The notes under the pieces: generated by a model
Database searches by the model: none
Told to the model about the DNA's origin: nothing
What the model saw: the letters and a program-made list of their open reading frames with translations, nothing else
Translations under genes and position numbers: made by a program
IMG/VR virus record: IMGVR_UViG_2687453512_000002
Length of the DNA stretch: 35,348 nt
Direction: 5' to 3' (one strand)
Source of the DNA: a virus
Taxonomy: Duplodnaviria > Heunggongvirae > Uroviricota > Caudoviricetes
Shown: piece by piece, positions 2,864 through 35,348 of the stretch
How the letters are laid out: each line of letters opens with the position of its first letter
Numbering within the stretch: position 1 is the stretch's first letter

Positions 2864-3247
2864 TCAGAATGGGATGGAATCGTCGTATTCAGGATTATTT
2901 TGATGATTGCTACTTTGCTGCTGTTGGCTGTTTCCTGAAGTTGCAAATCCAATCTTTGCATTCAGTAATTCAAGAGTGATTGATTGACCATTTTGCCCCT
3001 GATAAACATCAACCCTGATGTTTTCTCCGGTAATTTCTACAATGCCTCCTTCAACCAGAACGCTACGATAGTAATCCGCTTGCGCTCCCGGCTTGGCAAA
3101 TACAACGGCGCTGTAGTTTGTCCATTCTTTCTTTTTTGTCTGGCGATCGTAATACTGAACGCCAGCACGGATGTTGAATCCGATATTTTCCCCGCCCTGA
3201 AACTCTCTTGCGGGTTTGTTTAGTCTTACTGTAATCGAATGTGCCAT
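2864..3247 (-). CDS. ssb: Single-stranded DNA-binding protein (127 aa)
   Basis: OB-fold-like N-terminus, Gln/Gly-rich linker and acidic C-terminal tail ending YDDSIPF (canonical SSB tip); ATG overlaps erf stop (TAATG). Confidence 0.85.
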   Translation of the reverse strand: MAHSITVRLNKPAREFQGGENIGFNIRAGVQYYDRQTKKKEWTNYSAVVFAKPGAQADYYRSVLVEGGIVEITGENIRVDVYQGQNGQSITLELLNAKIGFATSGNSQQQQSSNHQNNPEYDDSIPF

Positions 3248-3852
3248 TAAGCAGTTGCCCCTTCTAATTCGTCTCGTCTGATGTTGTAAACGTCCTGCGC
3301 TTTGTGCTGCTCCGGCGTCCCTTCGAGCATCTTCCACGCTTTGGCGAACGCCTGTTTAAGCTCTTCTACGGTGTTTTTCTGCATTGCTGCGTCAGTGAAT
3401 GCTTTTAGAACCTGTTCAGGTGTAAGTGATGGTTTTGATTGCTTTGCTGCTGCGTTCTGCTGATGTTTATGCTCGTCTGTATCTGCATCTTTCGCATCAT
3501 CAATGCCGAACAAACCATTGAGGCAATACTTGCGTGCATAAGAGCTTGTAGCTCCCGTAACTTGTGCAGAATCCATTCCTTTCTTGCTTTCTTCCTCTCG
3601 TGCAAGAGCGGTTGCCGTATGACTGTTTTCGCCATCGGTAATAGTTGCCGTGGCTTTCACGTAATACCGATCACCAATCAACACAACTTCATCGCTGATT
3701 GATAAAAACAGACCGTTCAGTAACGGCTTAACGCCTTCAAGAATATCTTCGCAGCTTCTGTATTTATATTTGCCGAATGAGTTGTACTGATTCTTTGGCG
3801 CGTTCAGATTCTCCTGAATAGCTGCCAGTCTTGCGTAAAATTCTTTGCTCAT
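3247..3852 (-). CDS. erf: Erf-family single-strand annealing recombinase (about 201 aa)
   Basis: Translation from the internal ATG begins MSKEFYARLAAIQENLNAPKNQYNSFGKYKYRSCEDILEGVKPLL..., matching the P22 Erf N-terminus as remembered. Confidence 0.85.
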   Translation of the reverse strand: MSKEFYARLAAIQENLNAPKNQYNSFGKYKYRSCEDILEGVKPLLNGLFLSISDEVVLIGDRYYVKATATITDGENSHTATALAREEESKKGMDSAQVTGATSSYARKYCLNGLFGIDDAKDADTDEHKHQQNAAAKQSKPSLTPEQVLKAFTDAAMQKNTVEELKQAFAKAWKMLEGTPEQHKAQDVYNIRRDELEGATA

Positions 3853-3953
3853 ATGATTGCTCTCAGAATGGACACGGCCCAAGGAAATAACGCTGATTTA
3901 ATACTTCGACTCGGGACAAATTAAGGCATACCCGCATTCCTTCGCGGTCACCA

Positions 3954-4112
3954 TTATGGCGATACCAGAGAGCTTTCTGCGTGTACATGCGTCTCTGTAA
4001 CTTGCTCTCCTTCACTGTGGTTGCAAGTGACATGAATATCTCCTTCGTTACCGATTAATTCTTTTATCTGACGAATGAATTCTTCGTCTGACCAGTTATC
4101 CGTAAAACTCAT
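3954..4112 (-). CDS. Small protein in the Kil position (52 aa), start overlapping cIII stop
   Basis: ATGA overlap with the preceding cIII-like gene, as in lambda cIII/kil; assignment by position only. Confidence 0.4.
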   Translation of the reverse strand: MSFTDNWSDEEFIRQIKELIGNEGDIHVTCNHSEGEQVTETHVHAESSLVSP

Positions 4113-4279
4113 GGACGGCCTTGTTGTTTCAAAATATCCCAAAGCTTTTCGAGCAAGCTTTTCATTCTTGGTTGTTTAAAGTCTGCTCCGGTTAAAATGT
4201 TTTTTCGTGAATGCTGTACCGATAAAATCGGGTTGAAAGGGCGAACCGATGCCGCCCCTGCAATAGCGAACTGTTGCAT
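4109..4279 (-). CDS. cIII: CIII-like protein (FtsH/HflB inhibitor, 56 aa)
   Basis: Starts MQQFAIAG and ends LWDILKQQGRP, paralleling lambda CIII (MQYAIAG … LIDILNQPGVP); strong AAGGAG Shine-Dalgarno 6 nt before the ATG at 4279. Confidence 0.7.
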   Translation of the reverse strand: MQQFAIAGAASVRPFNPILSVQHSRKNILTGADFKQPRMKSLLEKLWDILKQQGRP

Positions 4280-4473
4280 AGGATGCTCCTTCTGTTTGAT
4301 TGCATAACGAAAACGCCTCGAGTGAAGCGTTATTGGTATGCATATAAAAAAGCCCTCACACTGGAGGGCAAAGAAGATTTCCAATAATCAGAACAAGTCG
4401 GCTCCTGTTTAGTTACGAGCGACATTGCTCCGTGTATTCACTCGTTGGAATGAATACACAGTGCTTATTCGTA

Positions 4474-4944
4474 CTAATAAAACACCCAGTTTTCTGTTTC
4501 TTGGTTGTGTCCAAAGTTATATTCAATACCTGGTGTTGATGTATCAATATTCTTCATCCCATCAACAAGAGTTGATACAACAGCCAAATCTTGTTTGATT
4601 CTCATCAAATGGTATTTCTTCCGGCGCAATAAACTTTCAATGGCAAGTTTCTTCGTCGGGAATGCAAAAGATCTTTCTGCATTTTTTGCTACTTTCTTAA
4701 TTGCATATCTATTTCTCCTTTGTTTCCATTCCTGTAACCACTGATTTGGTGCTGGTTTAAAATTAACAATCCAATGCGCAGGAACCAACCATGCATAATG
4801 CTCTGTCTGATGAAAAGCTATATATTGAAGTGCGAATATTTTGATTCCATCTTCTTCAACTGTCGCTTGGAATCTCCAGAAAACAGGCATTCCATCATGT
4901 TCAGTTTCTGATTCAGGAAAAGGTACGCTCCATGATTTTGTCAT
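4474..4944 (-). CDS. Hypothetical protein (156 aa), AT-rich moron-like gene between N and cIII
   Basis: Complete ORF in a region of visibly lower GC than flanking phage genes; occupies the ral/sieB-type accessory slot; no transmembrane segments. Confidence 0.65.
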   Translation of the reverse strand: MTKSWSVPFPESETEHDGMPVFWRFQATVEEDGIKIFALQYIAFHQTEHYAWLVPAHWIVNFKPAPNQWLQEWKQRRNRYAIKKVAKNAERSFAFPTKKLAIESLLRRKKYHLMRIKQDLAVVSTLVDGMKNIDTSTPGIEYNFGHNQETENWVFY

Positions 4945-4952
4945 ATATCACC

Positions 4953-5252
4953 TCAAATAAGTGGTTTGCTGCCTAATTTCATTTTCTGGCGACCAACACA
5001 AGTCACACCCATTTCACTGCGTGGCTTGCGGTAGTAAATACGATTCTGTTTACTCTCGACTTCATCTGCCTTCTTGCAGCGAAGGATTCCGAGTGATGCT
5101 GCTTTATCCGCTCTGACGCAACCAGAGAGCTTTAGCGCAATTTTTCGCGCCAGTCGCTGTTCTTGCATCGCCTGTTCACGTTGAGCCTGTCTGCGTGCTC
5201 TGCGGCGATTTCTGGCGTTATCGTCAGCCAGATATGTAATGACTACTGTCAT
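4953..5252 (-). CDS. N: Antitermination protein N-like (99 aa)
   Basis: Translation from ATG at 5252 (GGAGG Shine-Dalgarno): MTVVITYLADDNARNRRRARRQAQREQ... carries an arginine-rich motif like the boxB-binding N proteins; first gene downstream of pL/nutL. Confidence 0.75.
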   Translation of the reverse strand: MTVVITYLADDNARNRRRARRQAQREQAMQEQRLARKIALKLSGCVRADKAASLGILRCKKADEVESKQNRIYYRKPRSEMGVTCVGRQKMKLGSKPLI

Positions 5253-28753: not shown

Positions 28754-30765
28754 TGAAAGTAACTGCAAATGGTAAGACATTTACCTTTCCTGATGGTACG
28801 AGCACGGAAGATATTGGGTCCGCCATTGATGAGTATTTTGCTGGTCAGTCAGCGCCAACACAACAAGGTGTTCAGCAATCGCCAGCAGACAACTCACTTG
28901 CATCAGGATATGCACAGCTTGCCACTCAGCAGAAGGAAGGACTAGATCGCTCTGCTGAGCAAGGGGCTGTTTTAGGTGCTGCAATGCGCGATGCCGTTAC
29001 CGGTGAAAGCCGAATGACACCAGAAATGGAGAGACTGCAAAATGTTGGGGCTGCCCCTGAGTTGAACTCACTAAGCATGGATGCCCTGAAGGCTGGATGG
29101 TCTCAACTTTTCGGCTCCGACGCGTCTCAGGAAAAGATTCTTCAGAGTATGGGGGCGAAATTAAGGCAGGATGAGAAGGGTAACACTATCGTTTCCCTGC
29201 CATCCGGTGATTATGCCCTGAACAAGCCAGGTTTATCACCGCAAGACCTGACTTCGTTTCTTGCTAATGCGTTAGCGTTCACACCAGCGGGCAGGGCTGG
29301 AACGGTGCTTGGTGCCATAGGGAAATCAGCTGCTACAGATTTAGCACTACAGGGTGGCACCAGCCTTGCTGGCGGAGAAGATATTGATCCTGCACAAACG
29401 GTAATTTCTGCTGGCATTGGTGGTGTTGGCAAGGGGCTGGAAAATACAGTTAGTGCGGTTTCCAGGGCTGTTCGCGGTGAGATGTCACCGGAAGCAAAGG
29501 CTGCTGTCGATTTTGCGTCGGAAAGAAACCTGCCGTTAATGACCAGTGACACGCTGAAAGATAAAACCTTTATGCAGAGTCAGGCTCAGACATTAGGCGA
29601 AAGAGTTCCTTTTTTTGGAACCGGTAAGAATCGGCTGAATCAACAACAAGCACGAGAAAATTTAGTCAGAACATTTAGCGATGGTCTGGGTGGCATTTCT
29701 GATAAACAGCTTTATGAATCTGCGACTAAAGGGCAACAAAAATTCATTGAGGCAGCAGGAAAGCGATATAACCGCATAATTGACGCTATGGGGGATACCC
29801 CTGTCGATCTCTCAAACACGGTAAAAGCTATCGACAATCAGATTGCCGTGTTAAGCCGCCCGGGCAAATCTCAGGATAGAGCCGCGGTAAAAGTCTTGCA
29901 GCAATTTAAAGACGATATCACCAGCGGACCCAATGACCTGCGTCTGGCGAGAGAAAACAGAACTGACCTTCGAAAGCGGTTCATGAATTCAAACGAGACT
30001 GTTGATAAAGACACGCTCCAGAAAGCCAGCGATATTGTCTACAAGGCATATACAGCGGATATGAAAAAAGCAGTATCCCAAAAACTAGGCTCAGAAGAAG
30101 CTGCCAATATGTCTAGGGTTGATCGCTCATGGGCTAGATTCAATGACATGATGGGAAGAACGCGCGTTCAAAAGGCAATAGCCAGCGGCAAGGCTACACC
30201 TGAGGATGTAACAAAACTCGTTTTTAGCCAAAACCCATCAGAACGTTCTCAGCTTTACATGCTTCTGGATGACAATGGTAGGCAAAACGCACGAGCAGCC
30301 ATAGTTCAGAATGCTGTAGATAAGGCGACTGATCCGTCTGGAAATATTAGTGTTGAAAAGTTTATTAATGCGTTACACCGGAACAGGAAGCAATCAGCAA
30401 CTTTCTTTAAAGGCGTACATGGAAAGGAACTGGACGGCGTTATTAAATACCTCAACGATACAAGACACGCGGCAAAAGCGAACGTTCAAAACTTAAATGG
30501 TCAGCAGCTTTATGGATTGTTAGTTGGTGGTGGCATCATAAACGCAGCAGTATTAGCGGGGATGCTAAAAACGGCTGCGTTTGTTGTTCCTGCTGCTGGT
30601 GTCGTAGGAGGAGCTGCGAAGGCATACGAAAGCCCTGTTATACGAAATGCCTTGTTACGTCTGGCAAATACGCCAAAAGGTAGCACAGCATATGACAGAG
30701 CGATCAGTACGGTCACACAATCGCTCACCAGAGTCGCACAGGCATCACAAAAAGAAGCTCAATAA
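28750..30765 (+). CDS. Ejection protein, gp16-like (671 aa)
   Basis: Gene order and size; C-terminal hydrophobic stretch; last structural gene before the accessory region. Confidence 0.65.
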
Positions 30766-30782
30766 CTGGCAGCCACGGATGG

Positions 30783-31133
30783 CTAATTTTTATTCTTTGA
30801 TCTCGTCCACAGGTAAAGAAGAGCAATGGCAAGACAGGAAACAGAGAATAGATAACCTACCTCATATGGTGCGCCAAAAAAATTAGCTATTGATACGGGC
30901 AAAAAAGCCGAAGCGATCAGAATTGAAAGGCAAAAAATAAGCCCAGTAACATAGTTTATTAAACTCTTAAATGAGAAACGTTTTGCTTGATTTACGGTCT
31001 CAGCGAGTGATCGCTTAACGATGGATAAAAGCAAATAGATGGCGACAGTAGCTAATGCCCCTTTCCACCAGTCTGGATATAGTTTTGCGACAATCAGCCC
31101 AAGGAAAACCATGATGACAGACTGAGCATTCAC
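30783..31133 (-). CDS. Small inner-membrane protein (116 aa, 3-4 predicted TM helices); candidate superinfection-exclusion-type moron
   Basis: ATG with AAGGAGG Shine-Dalgarno; strongly hydrophobic; divergent from the 31309..32333 operon; occupies the sieA-type slot. Confidence 0.6.
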   Translation of the reverse strand: MNAQSVIMVFLGLIVAKLYPDWWKGALATVAIYLLLSIVKRSLAETVNQAKRFSFKSLINYVTGLIFCLSILIASAFLPVSIANFFGAPYEVGYLFSVSCLAIALLYLWTRSKNKN

Positions 31134-31308
31134 ACCAACCTCCTTAGTTTTGCGCAGGATACCAGATGATGTATAGGAGTGGGAGTAAAGTTAGTCGGTG
31201 ATAGAACGGTGGTTGCATAATGATATCACGTGACGTAAACTTATTGCGCATAGCGTGTATTCAATGGATGCATAGCTATTGATAATCTCCGATAAGAAGG
31301 AGGTTTGT

Positions 31309-31875
31309 ATGAGCAATGAGACTAATGGGATTGATGAAATGTTTAGCTTGAACGCTGCCAAAGCTGGAGTCGCAATAGGTTTGCTATTACAGCAAGCTTC
31401 TGCGTTCAGTTGTGAGGTGGTTGTTACTGATAACGTTCAGCACGCTTACCATCAATCCTCATTCAGCAGTGAACGGGCTAATGATGAGCTTCATGAGGCG
31501 GTGTCTTCGATTAAAGAATTGTCTCGAATGCTGAAATACGCTTATCGTGTTCTTGCAAACGCTACCGATGAGAATGTAGACAATGTGTTGTCTATCATTG
31601 AACCAGAAAAGTCTCGATTGATAGAGCATCAATTGAGAGGACTTGAAGGGGCAATGAAATCGGTATTCAAAGAAGCTTCTGCTGATTTTAAAGAGATCGC
31701 AAGAGATATCTATATCGTTGTTGCTGATGCCAGATCTGCCGTAACCAACCTGAATAGTCTTATTAAACAACGCTCATGTGTTCCGGTTGTTTTTGATAGT
31801 TCCGTAGATATGGCTGGTTTGCGTGCGCTTGCTGAGCACGGGACTCGTGTGTTTCACTCTGGTAACTTCCACTGA
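31309..31875 (+). CDS. Hypothetical protein (188 aa), first gene of a two-gene AT-rich operon; candidate partner/antitoxin of the downstream YafO-like protein
   Basis: ATG with AAGGAGG Shine-Dalgarno; helical protein with no recognised domain; 8-nt spacer to the next gene. Confidence 0.65.
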   Translation: MSNETNGIDEMFSLNAAKAGVAIGLLLQQASAFSCEVVVTDNVQHAYHQSSFSSERANDELHEAVSSIKELSRMLKYAYRVLANATDENVDNVLSIIEPEKSRLIEHQLRGLEGAMKSVFKEASADFKEIARDIYIVVADARSAVTNLNSLIKQRSCVPVVFDSSVDMAGLRALAEHGTRVFHSGNFH

Positions 31876-31883
31876 GGTAAAAC

Positions 31884-32333
31884 ATGCAAGTAACCGTGGA
31901 ATATAATCAGGATAGTTTTGACTATTTTTTCTCCCCGGTTTTTGTTGAGTTTCCTGATTTAAAACAAACACTTGTAGATGATTTTATCATCTACAAGTCT
32001 ACGGGAACGTTGCCCAGCTATTTTGGCAGAGACACCTCTTATCATCGACCTCCTGATATTGAAGATGCAGGCCTTATGCACCTTCATTTAGCAATTGGTG
32101 AAAATAAATTTGAGCCAATAAAAAATGGCACAGATATCAGCACACCGCAAAAGTTGCAGTGGCATAAAACATCCAATACCGCTCTCGTTTATGCACAAAA
32201 TCTTTTTGATGAGAACAGGTATTCATTGATTGCTCTTTTTCATCCTGTAGCTCACATGTCTGCTAACAATCATAATAGAATGAGAGTGTTAGCAGGGTAT
32301 GCGAGAGACTTTAGAAACACTATGTTTGACTAA
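31884..32333 (+). CDS. YafO-family toxin-like protein (149 aa)
   Basis: Motifs DDFIIYKSTGTLPSYFGRD, LMHLHLA, ALVYAQNLFDE, LIALFHP, NHNRMRVLAGYARDFR parallel the E. coli YafO sequence as remembered; about 37% GC. Confidence 0.65.
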   Translation: MQVTVEYNQDSFDYFFSPVFVEFPDLKQTLVDDFIIYKSTGTLPSYFGRDTSYHRPPDIEDAGLMHLHLAIGENKFEPIKNGTDISTPQKLQWHKTSNTALVYAQNLFDENRYSLIALFHPVAHMSANNHNRMRVLAGYARDFRNTMFD

Positions 32334-32334
32334 A

Positions 32335-32357
32335 CCCACCGTCAGGTGGGTTTTTTA
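32335..32357. terminator. Bidirectional terminator between convergent genes
   Basis: CCCACC-GTCA-GGTGGG hairpin followed by TTTTTT on the plus strand and flanked by an A-rich run on the other side. Confidence 0.7.
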
Positions 32358-32381
32358 TAAGGAGTAATCATGATTTACCCA

Positions 32382-32918
32382 TCAAACAACCCACCAGTTT
32401 GCCTGATTGGATGCCAGCCTTGCAGTTTTTATGGAATTAATTATGCCATGCTCAAGAGCCTTGTTAGCATCCAAAATGGTCGAGTCTGCTATCAGGGATG
32501 CCCACCTAATATGGGTTCCGATGTCGATATTGAACGTCTCAACGAAGCGATCAAGATCGTTATCGAGGCATTTCCCGTACTCTCTCAATCTGGCATGGTC
32601 GGCGGCTGGGGAGGCAAAGCACCATAATAGAGGATGTAACAGGAATCTTGATAATGGGTTTGCGAAACGTTCTGAGCCAGCCAGGAAAACGATATTAGCT
32701 ATGGATTCAACATTGCTTATGTTGTGAGTTCTAACGGTAACAGGGAGTGACTTAAGAAAGTTATACGCAGTAAAGCCAGCAGCAGTTTCCCCTCCCTGAC
32801 TTGATATATGGATATTTAATTCAGTTGCGCCTTGAGATAATGCGGTGAGACAGTGGTTCTGAAGTTGCCCAACAGTGGCAGTGTTAACAGGGCATAAGAA
32901 ATGAATTGTGTGCAGCAT
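32382..32918 (-). CDS. ClpP-fold (S14/S49-like) serine peptidase, 178 aa, translationally coupled to mnt
   Basis: IHISSQGGETAAGFTAYNFLKSLPVTVRTHNISNVESIANIVFLAGSERFANPLSRFLLHPL aligns with the ClpP core (…[42 protein letters not shown]…RVMIHQPL) with Ser and His in the catalytic positions; TAATG overlap with the mnt stop. Confidence 0.7.
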   Translation of the reverse strand: MLHTIHFLCPVNTATVGQLQNHCLTALSQGATELNIHISSQGGETAAGFTAYNFLKSLPVTVRTHNISNVESIANIVFLAGSERFANPLSRFLLHPLLWCFASPAADHARLREYGKCLDNDLDRFVETFNIDIGTHIRWASLIADSTILDANKALEHGIINSIKTARLASNQANWWVV

Positions 32919-33166
32919 TATTTTTCATCCTTAGCATACATGGTCTTTAGCGTCTCAAGTAGCGCCTCTTTGAATTTATCAGCTTCTTGCTGAGCAAATG
33001 ACTCAACTGACTTTGGCGACCTATCTTCATCAATCGCGGCTTGCAAAATCATGACGATCTCGGAGTTAACAGAGCGACCATTTTTTGATGCTCTGACAGC
33101 AAGAGCCTCGCGTAAAGATTCAGGGATTCTTACCGTAGTTGGAGAAATTGACACACCCTTTGCCAT
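32918..33166 (-). CDS. mnt: Mnt-like ribbon-helix-helix repressor (82 aa)
   Basis: MAKGVSISPTTVRIPESLREALAVRASKNGRSVNSEIVMILQAAIDED… with C-terminal …LETLKTMYAK resembles P22 Mnt; divergent from arc. Confidence 0.8.
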   Translation of the reverse strand: MAKGVSISPTTVRIPESLREALAVRASKNGRSVNSEIVMILQAAIDEDRSPKSVESFAQQEADKFKEALLETLKTMYAKDEK

Positions 33167-33189
33167 ATAACACCTTTGGTATTCAATTT

Positions 33190-33242
33190 GATAGCAAAGT
33201 GTATGCAAAAAAATTTTGACTAGATATACTCACTTTGCTATC
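33190..33242. promoter_or_regulatory. Divergent mnt/arc-ant promoter-operator region with a 12-bp perfect inverted repeat
   Basis: GATAGCAAAGTG (33190..33201) and its reverse complement CACTTTGCTATC (33231..33242) flank a TTGACT -35 element. Confidence 0.5.
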
Positions 33243-33280
33243 TTTTGTATTCGAAAAGAGTTGTTTGCGTGGAGGGTAAC

Positions 33281-33433
33281 ATGGAGAAAGAAATAAGTAA
33301 GATTTTGGTAAGGATGCCGCAGTCGTTAAAGGATGCTATCGGTAGCAGGGCAAAGGAAGAGTGCAGGTCGTTTAACTCAGAGGTTATCAAGCGCCTGATA
33401 GACAGCCTGAAGAGAGAGGGGGTAACGGTGTGA
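33281..33433 (+). CDS. arc: Arc-like ribbon-helix-helix repressor (50 aa)
   Basis: MEKEISKILVRMPQSLKDAIGSRAKEECRSFNSEVIKRLIDSLKREGVTV parallels P22 Arc (…NGRSVNSEIYQRVMESFKKEG…); GGAGGG Shine-Dalgarno. Confidence 0.8.
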   Translation: MEKEISKILVRMPQSLKDAIGSRAKEECRSFNSEVIKRLIDSLKREGVTV

Positions 33434-33665
33434 TTCGCTTGGATGCAGTAGTCAAAGAGATTGCGATTACCATTTTAAGACCAAATTTTGTTCATGGCGA
33501 ATCATTTGGCACGAACGAAAAATTGAGAAGAGAAAGAGTATTCAGTGGCAAGCGCACGTTTTCAGAAGTGATGCTTGATGCGGCAAAGAAATCAAAACAG
33601 TGAAGCCCCAACTGCTGGAACAGTCAGGGCTTCGGTTGTCGGTAAATCCGTGGAGAAAAACCAAC

Positions 33666-34370
33666 ATGAATAGTATAGCAATTTTAGAAGCAGTGAACAC
33701 CTCTTACGTGCCATTCAACGGTCAGCAAATTATCACCGCCATGGCTGCCGGAGTTGCATATGTTGCGATGAAGCCAATCGTTGAAAACCTCGGAATGAGC
33801 TGGTCAACGCAGCAAACAAAACTCATGAAGCAGATTAGCAAATTCAACTGTGTTCATATGAACATGGTTGCCGCTGATGGTAAGCTTCGTAAGCTACTCT
33901 GCCTTCCTTTGAAGAAGTTAAATGGATGGCTGTTCAGCATCAACCCTGAGAAAGTTCGTGCTGACATCCGCGATAAACTGATTCAGTACCAGGAAGAATG
34001 CTTTACTGTGCTGCATGACTACTGGACAAAGGGAGAGGCAGCAAATGCACGGAAGAAAACATCTGTTGATGACAGGACTCCGCTTCGTGATGCTGTAAAT
34101 ATGCTAGTCAGCAAAAAGCATCTAATGTACCCAGAAGCTTATGCAATGATTCATCAGCGTTTCAATGTGGAAAGTATTGAAGAGCTTGATGCATCTCAGA
34201 TACCACAAGCAGTAGAGTACATCCACAGGGTAGTGCTTGAAGGTGAGTTCATCGGCAAACAAGAGAAGAAAACCAACGAGCTTTCTGCAAAAGAAGCAAA
34301 CAGCCTTGTATGGCTATGGGATTATGCCAACCGCTCACAGGCATTATTCCGCGAACTGTATCCGCGCTAA
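33666..34370 (+). CDS. ant: Antirepressor Ant (234 aa)
   Basis: Begins [20 protein letters not shown]… consistent with P22-type Ant; follows mnt-arc in the immI arrangement. Confidence 0.8.
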
Positions 34371-34435
34371 AACAAATTCAATCGAACTATTCCGGCAGAT
34401 GTCATGACTGCGGTTATGAGTTCTCCCGTATTATC

Positions 34436-34567
34436 GATATGGCGAGAGACGTTTTAATCAATCACACACGAGATGTTGATATCAATGAGCCAGACGGACC
34501 AACGAATCTTTCCGCATGGATGAGACTTAAGAATAAAGAATTACCTCCTTCAGTACATAATTACTGA
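34436..34567 (+). CDS. Possible small ORF (43 aa) downstream of ant
   Basis: ATG-initiated ORF ending just before the terminator; no Shine-Dalgarno assessed, no family. Confidence 0.25.
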
Positions 34568-34586
34568 CAGATAACCAACGCAACGA

Positions 34587-34609
34587 CCCAGCTTCGGCTG
34601 GGTTTTTTT
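34587..34609 (+). terminator. Rho-independent terminator after the ant operon
   Basis: CCCAGC-TTCG-GCTGGG hairpin followed by TTTTTTT. Confidence 0.7.
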
Positions 34610-34667
34610 ATGCCCAAAATTCACCGTGGCCATGCTGCGGCGATTCTTTGCATCTGGAGCAAATTAA

Positions 34668-34717
34668 ATGACAGACATTACAGCCAATGTGATTGTTGCG
34701 TATTTTCATGAAAGGAG
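34668..34717 (+). pseudogene. Tailspike gene 5-prime fragment (first ~10 codons only), truncated at the junction with rRNA sequence
   Basis: GGAG Shine-Dalgarno then ATG ACA GAC ATT ACA GCC AAT GTG ATT GTT = MTDITANVIV, matching the conserved head-binding N-terminus of P22-family tailspikes (MTDITANVVV…); the reading frame then runs into 16S rRNA sequence. Confidence 0.5.
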
Positions 34718-34997
<280 letters not shown>

Positions 34998-35082
34998 CCT
35001 TAAAGAAGCGTACTTTGCAGTGCTCACACAGATTGTCTGATAGAAAGTGAAAAGCAAGGCGTCTTGCGAAGCAGACTGATAC

Positions 35083-35158
35083 GTCCCCTTCGTCTAGAGG
35101 CCCAGGACACCGCCCTTTCACGGCGGTAACAGGGGTTCGAATCCCCTAGGGGACGCCA
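35083..35158 (+). tRNA. tRNA-Glu (anticodon UUC) in the 16S-23S spacer
   Basis: GTCCCCTTCGTCTAGAGGCCCAGGACACCGCCCTTTCACGGCGGTAACAGGGGTTCGAATCCCCTAGGGGACGCCA, 76 nt cloverleaf with CTTTCAC anticodon loop. Confidence 0.97.
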
Positions 35159-35348
35159 CTTGCTGGTTTGTGAGTGAAAGTCACCTGCCTTAATATCTCA
35201 AAACTCATCTTCGGGTGATGTTTGAGATATTTGCTCTTTAAAAATCTGGATCAAGCTGAAAATTGAAACACTGAACAACGAGAGTTGTTCGTGAGTCTCT
35301 CAAATTTTCGCAACACGATGATGAATCGCAAGAAACATCTTCGGGTTG

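Follow-up and report, generated by a model that had tools for sequence, protein, structure and literature searches.

Why would a temperate phage place a gene of the ClpP family directly behind the gene of the repressor that maintains its immunity? The question is raised by a 35,348-nt stretch of viral DNA (Caudoviricetes; IMG/VR record IMGVR_UViG_2687453512_000002), hereafter the window, in which positions 32,382 to 33,166 hold on the minus strand a homologue of the phage P22 repressor gene mnt (32918..33166) and, overlapping its 3' end, an ATG-initiated open reading frame (ORF) of 178 aa that matches Pfam PF00574 (32382..32918; hereafter the clpP-like gene). The answer we favor, with a probability of roughly 0.55, is that the prophage provides its host with an accessory ClpP subunit of the type represented by Pseudomonas plecoglossicida ClpP1 (PpClpP1). 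Such a subunit would be expressed in the lysogen together with Mnt, assemble into rings, have weak peptidase activity and form mixed complexes with the host ClpP.

The preliminary description of this locus, made from the DNA letters, had recognized a ClpP-like core in the 178-aa product, and both profile searches and structure prediction bear this out. The Pfam CLP_protease profile matches residues 24-165 over its positions 37-180 of 182 (E=2.2e-11; 44.4 bits versus a cutoff of 20.2), and an AlphaFold2 model of the monomer generated with 41 homologues reaches a predicted local distance difference test score (pLDDT) of 93 and includes the handle helix as a long helix at residues 108-132. The nearest solved relative is PDB 9uxt_A, for which phmmer returns E=1.6e-35, as opposed to ~1e-7 for canonical ClpPs and 3.7e-4 for PaClpP1. 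Foldseek aligns the model to the same chain with a template modeling (TM) score of 0.93 and a root-mean-square deviation of 1.7 Å at 38% identity; the TM scores against the ClpPs of Escherichia coli, Staphylococcus aureus and Listeria are ~0.82, with 20% identity to the E. coli protein. Every NCBIfam model for ClpP or for head proteases falls far short of its cutoff, the clpP equivalog with 19 bits against 309, and the PpClpP1-type family comprises 524 clusters (50% identity, E<=1e-10), mostly of 180-190 aa. The 178-aa protein is a truncated ClpP paralogue of the PpClpP1 type, neither a canonical ClpP nor a head-maturation protease, and the labels under which its gene circulates, the housekeeping "ATP-dependent Clp protease proteolytic subunit" or "head maturation protease", are misannotations. 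Already auto-annotated as a Clp subunit in RefSeq, the protein is now a phage-borne member of the known alternative ClpP subunits.

The residues that matter for function were mapped on an alignment with E. coli ClpP (its sequence checked against PDB 3MT6), PpClpP1 and five Pseudomonas members of the family. Ser72 and His95, the two catalytic residues anticipated by the preliminary description, align with Ser97 and His122 of E. coli ClpP and are invariant in 41 homologues, and the equivalent of the oxyanion Gly68 is retained. A complete Ser/His/Asp triad is not present in the alignment: the position of Asp171 is occupied by Ser145, is Ser, Ala, Pro or Gly across the family, and adjoins an Asp144 that is not conserved, leaving the third position of the peptidase S14 triad without its Asp. 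Also missing are the first ~25 residues of mature ClpP, which contain the axial loops and helix A, the protein beginning at the first core strand. In the pocket that receives the IGF/IGL loops of ClpX and ClpA, whose residues we take to be those of the E. coli ClpP-ADEP (acyldepsipeptide) and ClpX structures, six of the eight alignable residues are now polar, charged or Ser (Y60N, Y62H, F82S, I90H, L114N and L189K). Judged by sequence, the docking site for unfoldases is lost. The earlier label of a short ClpP-like peptidase therefore holds for the fold and the Ser/His pair, but the protein is part of a defined subfamily in which the N-terminus is truncated and this docking site missing (PpClpP1; 9UXT). 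A further feature of the subfamily is a near-invariant Trp-rich C-terminal tail (residues 173-178), which reads N-W-W-V in the enterobacterial phage members, with W175 in at least 90% of sequences. This tail is modeled as a terminal beta-strand, has no counterpart in canonical ClpP and might influence contacts within the ring or occupy the pocket in which unfoldases once docked.

Expectations about function come from PpClpP1 (PDB 9UXT), the only studied member of this short subfamily (PMC12900304). It is a homotetradecamer by cryo-electron microscopy and analytical ultracentrifugation, with an unusually wide pore of 42.7 Å and a Ser-His-Pro "triad", and its peptidase activity, which is 13-fold under that of the canonical paralogue, is abolished by changing Ser or His to Ala and mildly affected by changes at the third position (PMC12900304). 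Alone, it does not pull down ClpX and degrades neither casein nor GFP-ssrA; together with canonical ClpP it forms a stable heterotetradecamer that binds ClpX, and deletion of the Pseudomonas homologue results in a growth defect (PMC12900304). Phages are not mentioned in that paper. By analogy, the phage protein would form ClpP-type rings and act alone as a weak, Ser/His-dependent peptidase that binds no unfoldase. Because it would be unable to bind an unfoldase, we suspect that it acts mainly in mixed tetradecamers with the host ClpP, and such complexes may change the rate or the cleavage pattern of ClpXP and ClpAP proteolysis in the lysogen, with Ant (the antirepressor), repressor fragments and incoming-phage proteins as candidate substrates. 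Lysogens thus probably gain a second, phage-supplied ClpP subunit, which, if PpClpP1 is a fair guide, probably works with the host enzyme to tune Clp proteolysis.

The connection to Mnt is what suggests when this subunit is made. The upstream gene, the first of the leftward immI unit, encodes an 82-aa protein (MAKGV...) with a ribbon-helix-helix (RHH) N-terminus (Pfam Arc, 9.5e-11) and a C-terminal tail like that of Mnt; the protein aligns with P22 Mnt over 74 of its 82 residues at 36% identity (E=7e-14), and its Pectobacterium orthologue, which sits in the same operon, matches PF11423 (Repressor_Mnt). The repressor is thus a genuine Mnt homologue, and the overlap reported in the preliminary description, with both ORFs sharing one base, is present as claimed. 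On the minus strand the junction (32916..32932) reads ...AAG GAT GAA AAA TAA TG, in which the mnt stop codon TAA (32920-32918) runs into the ATG of the clpP-like gene (32918-32916), and an AAGGA Shine-Dalgarno sequence (32932-32928) lies within the last mnt codons, 9 nt 5' of that ATG. The translational coupling proposed earlier is therefore real at the level of sequence. Of the immI promoters of P22, Pmnt is the one that works in lysogens, and it is turned off by Arc. The phage ClpP subunit would accordingly be made together with Mnt from a lysogen-active promoter and, given this presumed co-production, would serve lysogenic conversion (a moron function) rather than the virion or the lytic cycle.

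The best available evidence that the clpP-like gene belongs to the mnt transcription unit is, on comparison of the sequences, an allele that lacks it. In E. coli 14EC017 (locus L163 of our survey), which is 98% identical to the window through mnt and arc, 9 nt stand where blastn places a 582-nt cargo cassette in the window (32357..32938, minus strand) made up of a new mnt 3' end, the clpP-like gene and a 24-nt spacer. The mnt gene of the ClpP-less allele ends ...ETLRNMQENKKPT and is followed directly by a GC-rich terminator hairpin (L163 2967-2991; 25 nt, 96%), the same one that lies after the clpP-like gene in the window as ACCCACC-GTCA-GGTGGGT (32332..32358), where it is common to the convergent yafO-like and mnt/clpP-like units. 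Since immI modules 98% identical to that of the window exist without it, the clpP-like gene is optional, or dispensable, for immI function. Its GC content (45%) matches that of the surrounding immI genes (43-47%), and there is thus no compositional moron signature.

We surveyed ~160 loci, of which 49 are close (>=79% identity) and 86 distant (<=75% identity). The identical protein occurs on at least 1000 public contigs, and the 785-nt region is found in 146 of 5426 complete E. coli genomes (~2.7%); phage-borne members of the subfamily also occur in Salmonella, Pectobacterium, Klebsiella, Proteus and Pantoea. Close loci include E. coli and Shigella-type prophages, a P22-like prophage of Pectobacterium parmentieri, and the phages phiv205-1, EC.P3 and the lambdoid PhiR12. 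The Pectobacterium prophage has the same mnt/clpP-like operon arrangement, and relative to its 80%-identical homologue the clpP-like gene has a ratio of nonsynonymous to synonymous substitution (dN/dS) of 0.075, a value indicative of strong purifying selection. Of the 49 close loci, 46 retain the TAATG junction with its 1-nt overlap to mnt, one has a junction mutation and two are truncated. Given this selection, this abundance and this retention of the overlap, the ORF is a real gene and not a chance reading frame. The mnt/clpP-like region is present three times in the genome of E. coli ExPEC (extraintestinal pathogenic E. coli) XM (NZ_CP025328), each copy presumably in a prophage of its own.

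The coupled mnt genes comprise at least six DNA-binding alleles, the P22 type included, and all of their products end ...ETLK(T/K)(M/I)Y(G/A)KD(E/D/N)K, with the K-D codons (AAGGAT) kept across six alleles. Because this C-terminal end is common to all alleles, we place a mosaic boundary inside mnt, with the tail that carries the Shine-Dalgarno sequence traveling with the clpP-like gene. In phage PhiR12_1 (PV340549; locus L003), a full immI cassette of clpP-like gene, mnt, arc and ant lies between tail genes L and K (3048-5060). With the full cassette thus found in lambdoid siphoviruses, the immI module moves as a unit between podovirus and siphovirus backbones.

The more distant homologues (<=75% identity) are arranged differently. 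Each is a lone gene that runs against the direction of its neighbors, located between lysis and terminase genes (Leclercia and Klebsiella/E. coli-type lambdoids), between N and erf/ssb (Proteus), inside myovirus tail modules (Chromobacterium and Pantoea) or among insertion sequence (IS) elements, and a co-oriented RHH gene is found upstream in 0 of the 86 distant loci. Promoter scans of two of these stand-alone homologues for promoters of their own gave nothing above shuffled background. In terms of gene order, opposite-strand insertions of single genes at varied prophage sites constitute the classic moron pattern.

Several points weigh against the idea of an accessory subunit made from Pmnt. 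When the window was scanned for Pmnt, no sigma-70 consensus and nothing above shuffled background came up, and the hairpin behind the clpP-like gene, which has a good T-run on the plus strand, has a weak TTT tail on the minus strand and was not listed at this site by a pattern scan. The gain in degradation by the PpClpP1P2 heterocomplex was described as slight (PMC12900304). The phage protein is only ~40% identical to PpClpP1, whose clade is chromosomal and not phage-borne, and carrying the heterocomplex property over to E. coli ClpP is for these reasons an extrapolation. We had expected PpClpP1 itself to be prophage-borne; its conserved chromosomal context in Pseudomonas led us to discard that idea.

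Among the other explanations, the closest is a special case of the accessory subunit in which the protein is a dedicated immI component. According to this view, the ClpP paralogue, alone or with host ClpXP, would keep Ant or another immI protein low in lysogens and thereby reinforce repression by Mnt. The gene overlaps and is coupled to mnt, the repressor gene of ant, ant lies within 6 kb in 48 of the 49 close loci, and 14 of these immI modules hold a second Clp-related part in the ant operon, an ORF that resembles the zinc-binding domain (ZBD) of ClpX. There is also a precedent in S. aureus, where ClpX is needed to complete prophage induction by removal of CI (PMC10584840). However, the homologues of 52-75% identity occupy four other prophage positions, arc or ant is within 6 kb in 0 of the 86 distant loci, and otherwise 98% identical immI modules do without the gene; moreover, we found no paper that ties Ant to Clp proteolysis. 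We therefore regard a role dedicated to immI as unlikely.

The second Clp-related part deserves a description of its own. In the arc-ant slot of those 14 close loci lies an ORF of 60-75 aa that is coupled to arc and has two CxxC motifs. One type passes the Pfam zf-C4_ClpX threshold with 42 bits, and a profile of five types, searched against the PDB, had only ClpX N-terminal zinc-binding domains as top matches (E=2.6e-7) and aligned with the N-terminus of E. coli ClpX at 94% probability in hhalign. Examples are L163 3492-3674, loci L081, L090, L097, L080 and L096, and phage CUS-3 (CP000711, 6562-6762); the ORF is unannotated in CUS-3, and its occurrence in L163 means that it is present in the ClpP-less allele as well. 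In the window, this variable slot is filled by orf57 (33430..33603, plus strand), a 57-aa ORF that has a 4-nt overlap with the arc stop, has no Pfam match and is unrelated to the ClpX zinc-finger-like ORFs of the other alleles. A bolder proposal is that immI carries a two-part Clp layer: in lysogens, Pmnt would co-express Mnt and a phage ClpP ring able to assemble with the host subunits, and in many of the same modules Pant would co-express Arc and a free ClpX zinc-binding domain that blocks ZBD-dependent substrate delivery. Such a layer might act in the lysis-lysogeny decision, with Ant, for example, destroyed in lysogens and protected on infection or induction. We offer this scheme tentatively and think the odds are well against it; if true, both the phage-encoded ClpP subunit and the ClpX decoy would be the first of their kind with a role in regulation.

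The protein might instead, as the preliminary description proposed alongside antirepressor turnover, be a superinfection-exclusion or anti-phage effector that degrades the ejected or early proteins of incoming phages or triggers abortive infection. Its gene takes the slot that sieA and ORF59 occupy in P22, its homologues lie on the opposite strand in classic moron and defense hot spots, and a YafO-family toxin pair adjoins it in the window. On the other hand, PADLOC-DB v2 profiles gave no family for the 178-aa protein at E<=0.1, Clp is absent from the DefensePredictor paper, and PpClpP1 leaves even unfolded casein intact unless ClpX and canonical ClpP are present (PMC12900304). The Pseudomonas clade is chromosomal, in a housekeeping or stress context, and the phage gene has no sensor or partner gene. 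The adjoining YafO pair is replaced in phiv205-1, EC.P3 and 14EC017. An exclusion function is doubtful on this evidence.

A still weaker reading casts the protein as a type II toxin and the RHH protein as its antitoxin, for which one could point to an RHH gene with a 1-nt overlap to the next gene and to matches of the Mnt-like protein to FitA-like RHH antitoxin profiles. We rejected it: an RHH partner is missing in 86 of 86 distant loci, the gene stands alone on the Pseudomonas chromosome, and deletion there brings a growth defect and not relief (PMC12900304). The RHH protein is, moreover, a full-length Mnt homologue divergent from arc-sar-ant, and a toxin function is very improbable. Finally, the notion of a phage head-maturation (prohead) protease, drawn from the best PHROG match, phrog_94 ("head maturation protease", E=7e-21), NCBIfam Clp_rel_HeadMat (NF045542) and the GenBank annotation QGF19911 of phiv205-1, is hardly credible and was rejected. 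The Clp_rel_HeadMat score of 49.3 bits is far from the cutoff of 120, the gene is part of immI and runs against the late operon, and in structure the protein comes closest to a cellular paralogue of ClpP. In Leclercia, a prophage that carries a 75% homologue encodes a separate ClpP-type protease of 284 aa beside portal and capsid.

The surroundings of the clpP-like gene are those of a P22-like prophage, which encodes a P22 portal and coat, ejection proteins of the gp7 and gp20 types, and a repressor of the C2 type with helix-turn-helix and S24 domains. The portal gene, a 297-aa gene (scaffold) and the coat gene are contiguous, with no protease between them. Positions 30000-34722 are 99.979% identical, with one gap, to a prophage of E. 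coli ATCC 11775. Since the Mnt homologue faces arc, the sar antisense RNA and ant, the locus is a genuine immI region. The arc homologue (33281..33433, plus strand) encodes 50 aa (Pfam Arc, 5.1e-12), sar (33599..33665, minus strand) matches Rfam RF00262 with 83.9 bits against a gathering score of 43, and ant (33666..34567, plus strand) matches Pfam P22_AR_N (3.1e-45). Compared with the intact ant of ATCC 11775 (300 aa), the copy in the window has a 1-nt indel that breaks the gene into two ORFs (33600..34370 and 34310..34567); probably the antirepressor is inactive in this copy, or else the indel is a sequencing error.

The control region between the divergent mnt and arc genes (33167..33280), the equivalent of Pant/Pmnt with its presumed operators, was read from the sequence. 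By eye, we found an inverted repeat whose two 11-bp arms, ATAGCAAAGTG / CACTTTGCTAT, match perfectly and lie 29 nt apart (33191-33240), and overlapping it a promoter-like TTGACT-17-TATCTT on the plus strand (33216-33244). The repeat is a candidate operator pair for the Mnt/Arc allele of the window; an inverted-repeat tool detected no operator in the spacer with the distance limit as set.

Downstream of the clpP-like gene, and convergent with it, positions 31279-32333 encode a 198-aa protein (phrog_8416) and then a homologue of the YafO-family toxins (Pfam, 3.4e-22; under the NCBIfam equivalog cutoff), a possible toxin-antitoxin or abortive-infection pair. Because unrelated genes are swapped in for this pair in phiv205-1, EC.P3 and 14EC017, the interval between gene 16 and immI can be viewed as a variable cargo bay. 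At the other end, homology to ATCC 11775 stops at 34722, beyond which the tailspike gene would be expected; ATCC 11775 has an IS21 element at the corresponding position, before its tailspike gene. The 3' end of the window contains fragments of the 3' part of 16S rRNA (34661-34984), a tRNA (35083-35155) and StyR-44 (35236-35344), which suggests that 34661-35348 either became joined to an rRNA operon by rearrangement or is a chimera of the assembly.

We found no publication on a phage-encoded member of the PpClpP1 type, on its coupling to Mnt, or on the ClpX zinc-binding-domain ORFs in immI. According to a published report, the phiv205-1 prophage increases biofilm formation and adhesion in its avian pathogenic E. 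coli host, an effect that was attributed to other genes and is not assignable to the clpP-like gene. Alternative ClpP subunits have recently emerged as proteolysis rheostats in pathogens and have so far been treated as chromosomal paralogues. Here, one such subfamily proves to be widespread among temperate phages of Enterobacterales, at five or more moron positions, and in P22-like and some lambdoid phages its gene is placed under what is presumably the only immI promoter with activity in lysogens. Should phage and host subunits co-assemble, lysogeny would alter the output of ClpXP and ClpAP, including RpoS, SOS and antitoxin turnover and the clearance of repressor fragments. This would amount to a new route of lysogenic conversion, and possibly a control on prophage stability.

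Comparison with known systems places the locus more precisely. As in P22 immI, mnt points leftward and arc-sar-ant rightward, between the gene 16 homologue and the tailspike position; unlike in P22, where no gene overlaps mnt, the first gene after mnt is a ClpP paralogue joined to it by TAATG. In P22 the clpP-like gene is absent, in line with the preliminary description, which held that it is not a standard P22 feature. That description had also called P22 mnt a stand-alone gene, which is correct with respect to overlap but overlooks ORF59 and sieA, which follow 3' on the same strand, ~100 and ~400 nt away. With these two genes lying there in P22, the place behind mnt can be considered a recognized accessory slot.

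The phage prohead proteases have the ClpP-like core in common with the 178-aa protein and account for its moderate matches to NF045542 and phrog_94, whereas the clpP-like gene differs in position and strand, and its product lacks an extension of the scaffold or delta type and does not reach the curated cutoff. With E. coli ClpP (MEROPS S14, PF00574) the protein shares its fold and the equivalents of Ser97, His122 and Gly68, but it is without residues 1 to ~25, Asp171 and Arg170. Functionally more suggestive are P. aeruginosa ClpP2, an alternative subunit that tunes ClpXP through hetero-oligomers as a proteolysis rheostat (PMC13056064, PMC12451819), Listeria ClpP1 and Mycobacterium tuberculosis ClpP1P2. 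In each, a second ClpP that is unable to recruit an unfoldase acts through hetero-oligomers, and Listeria ClpP1/2 is the next-best structural match (TM 0.82). These proteins, however, belong to other sequence subfamilies, are cellular and keep the N-terminal region, and most of them keep the triad Asp/Asn. The closest counterpart is PpClpP1: the two proteins are of similar length (178 versus 183 aa) and ~38-40% identical, and they have in common the N-terminal truncation, the invariant Ser and His, the lack of an Asp at the third position and the polar pocket. They differ in the third residue of the triad, which PpClpP1 has as Pro and the phage protein as Ser, and in that PpClpP1 is encoded by a conserved Pseudomonas chromosomal gene beside KGG/DUF6555 genes, whereas the gene in the window is phage cargo coupled to Mnt.

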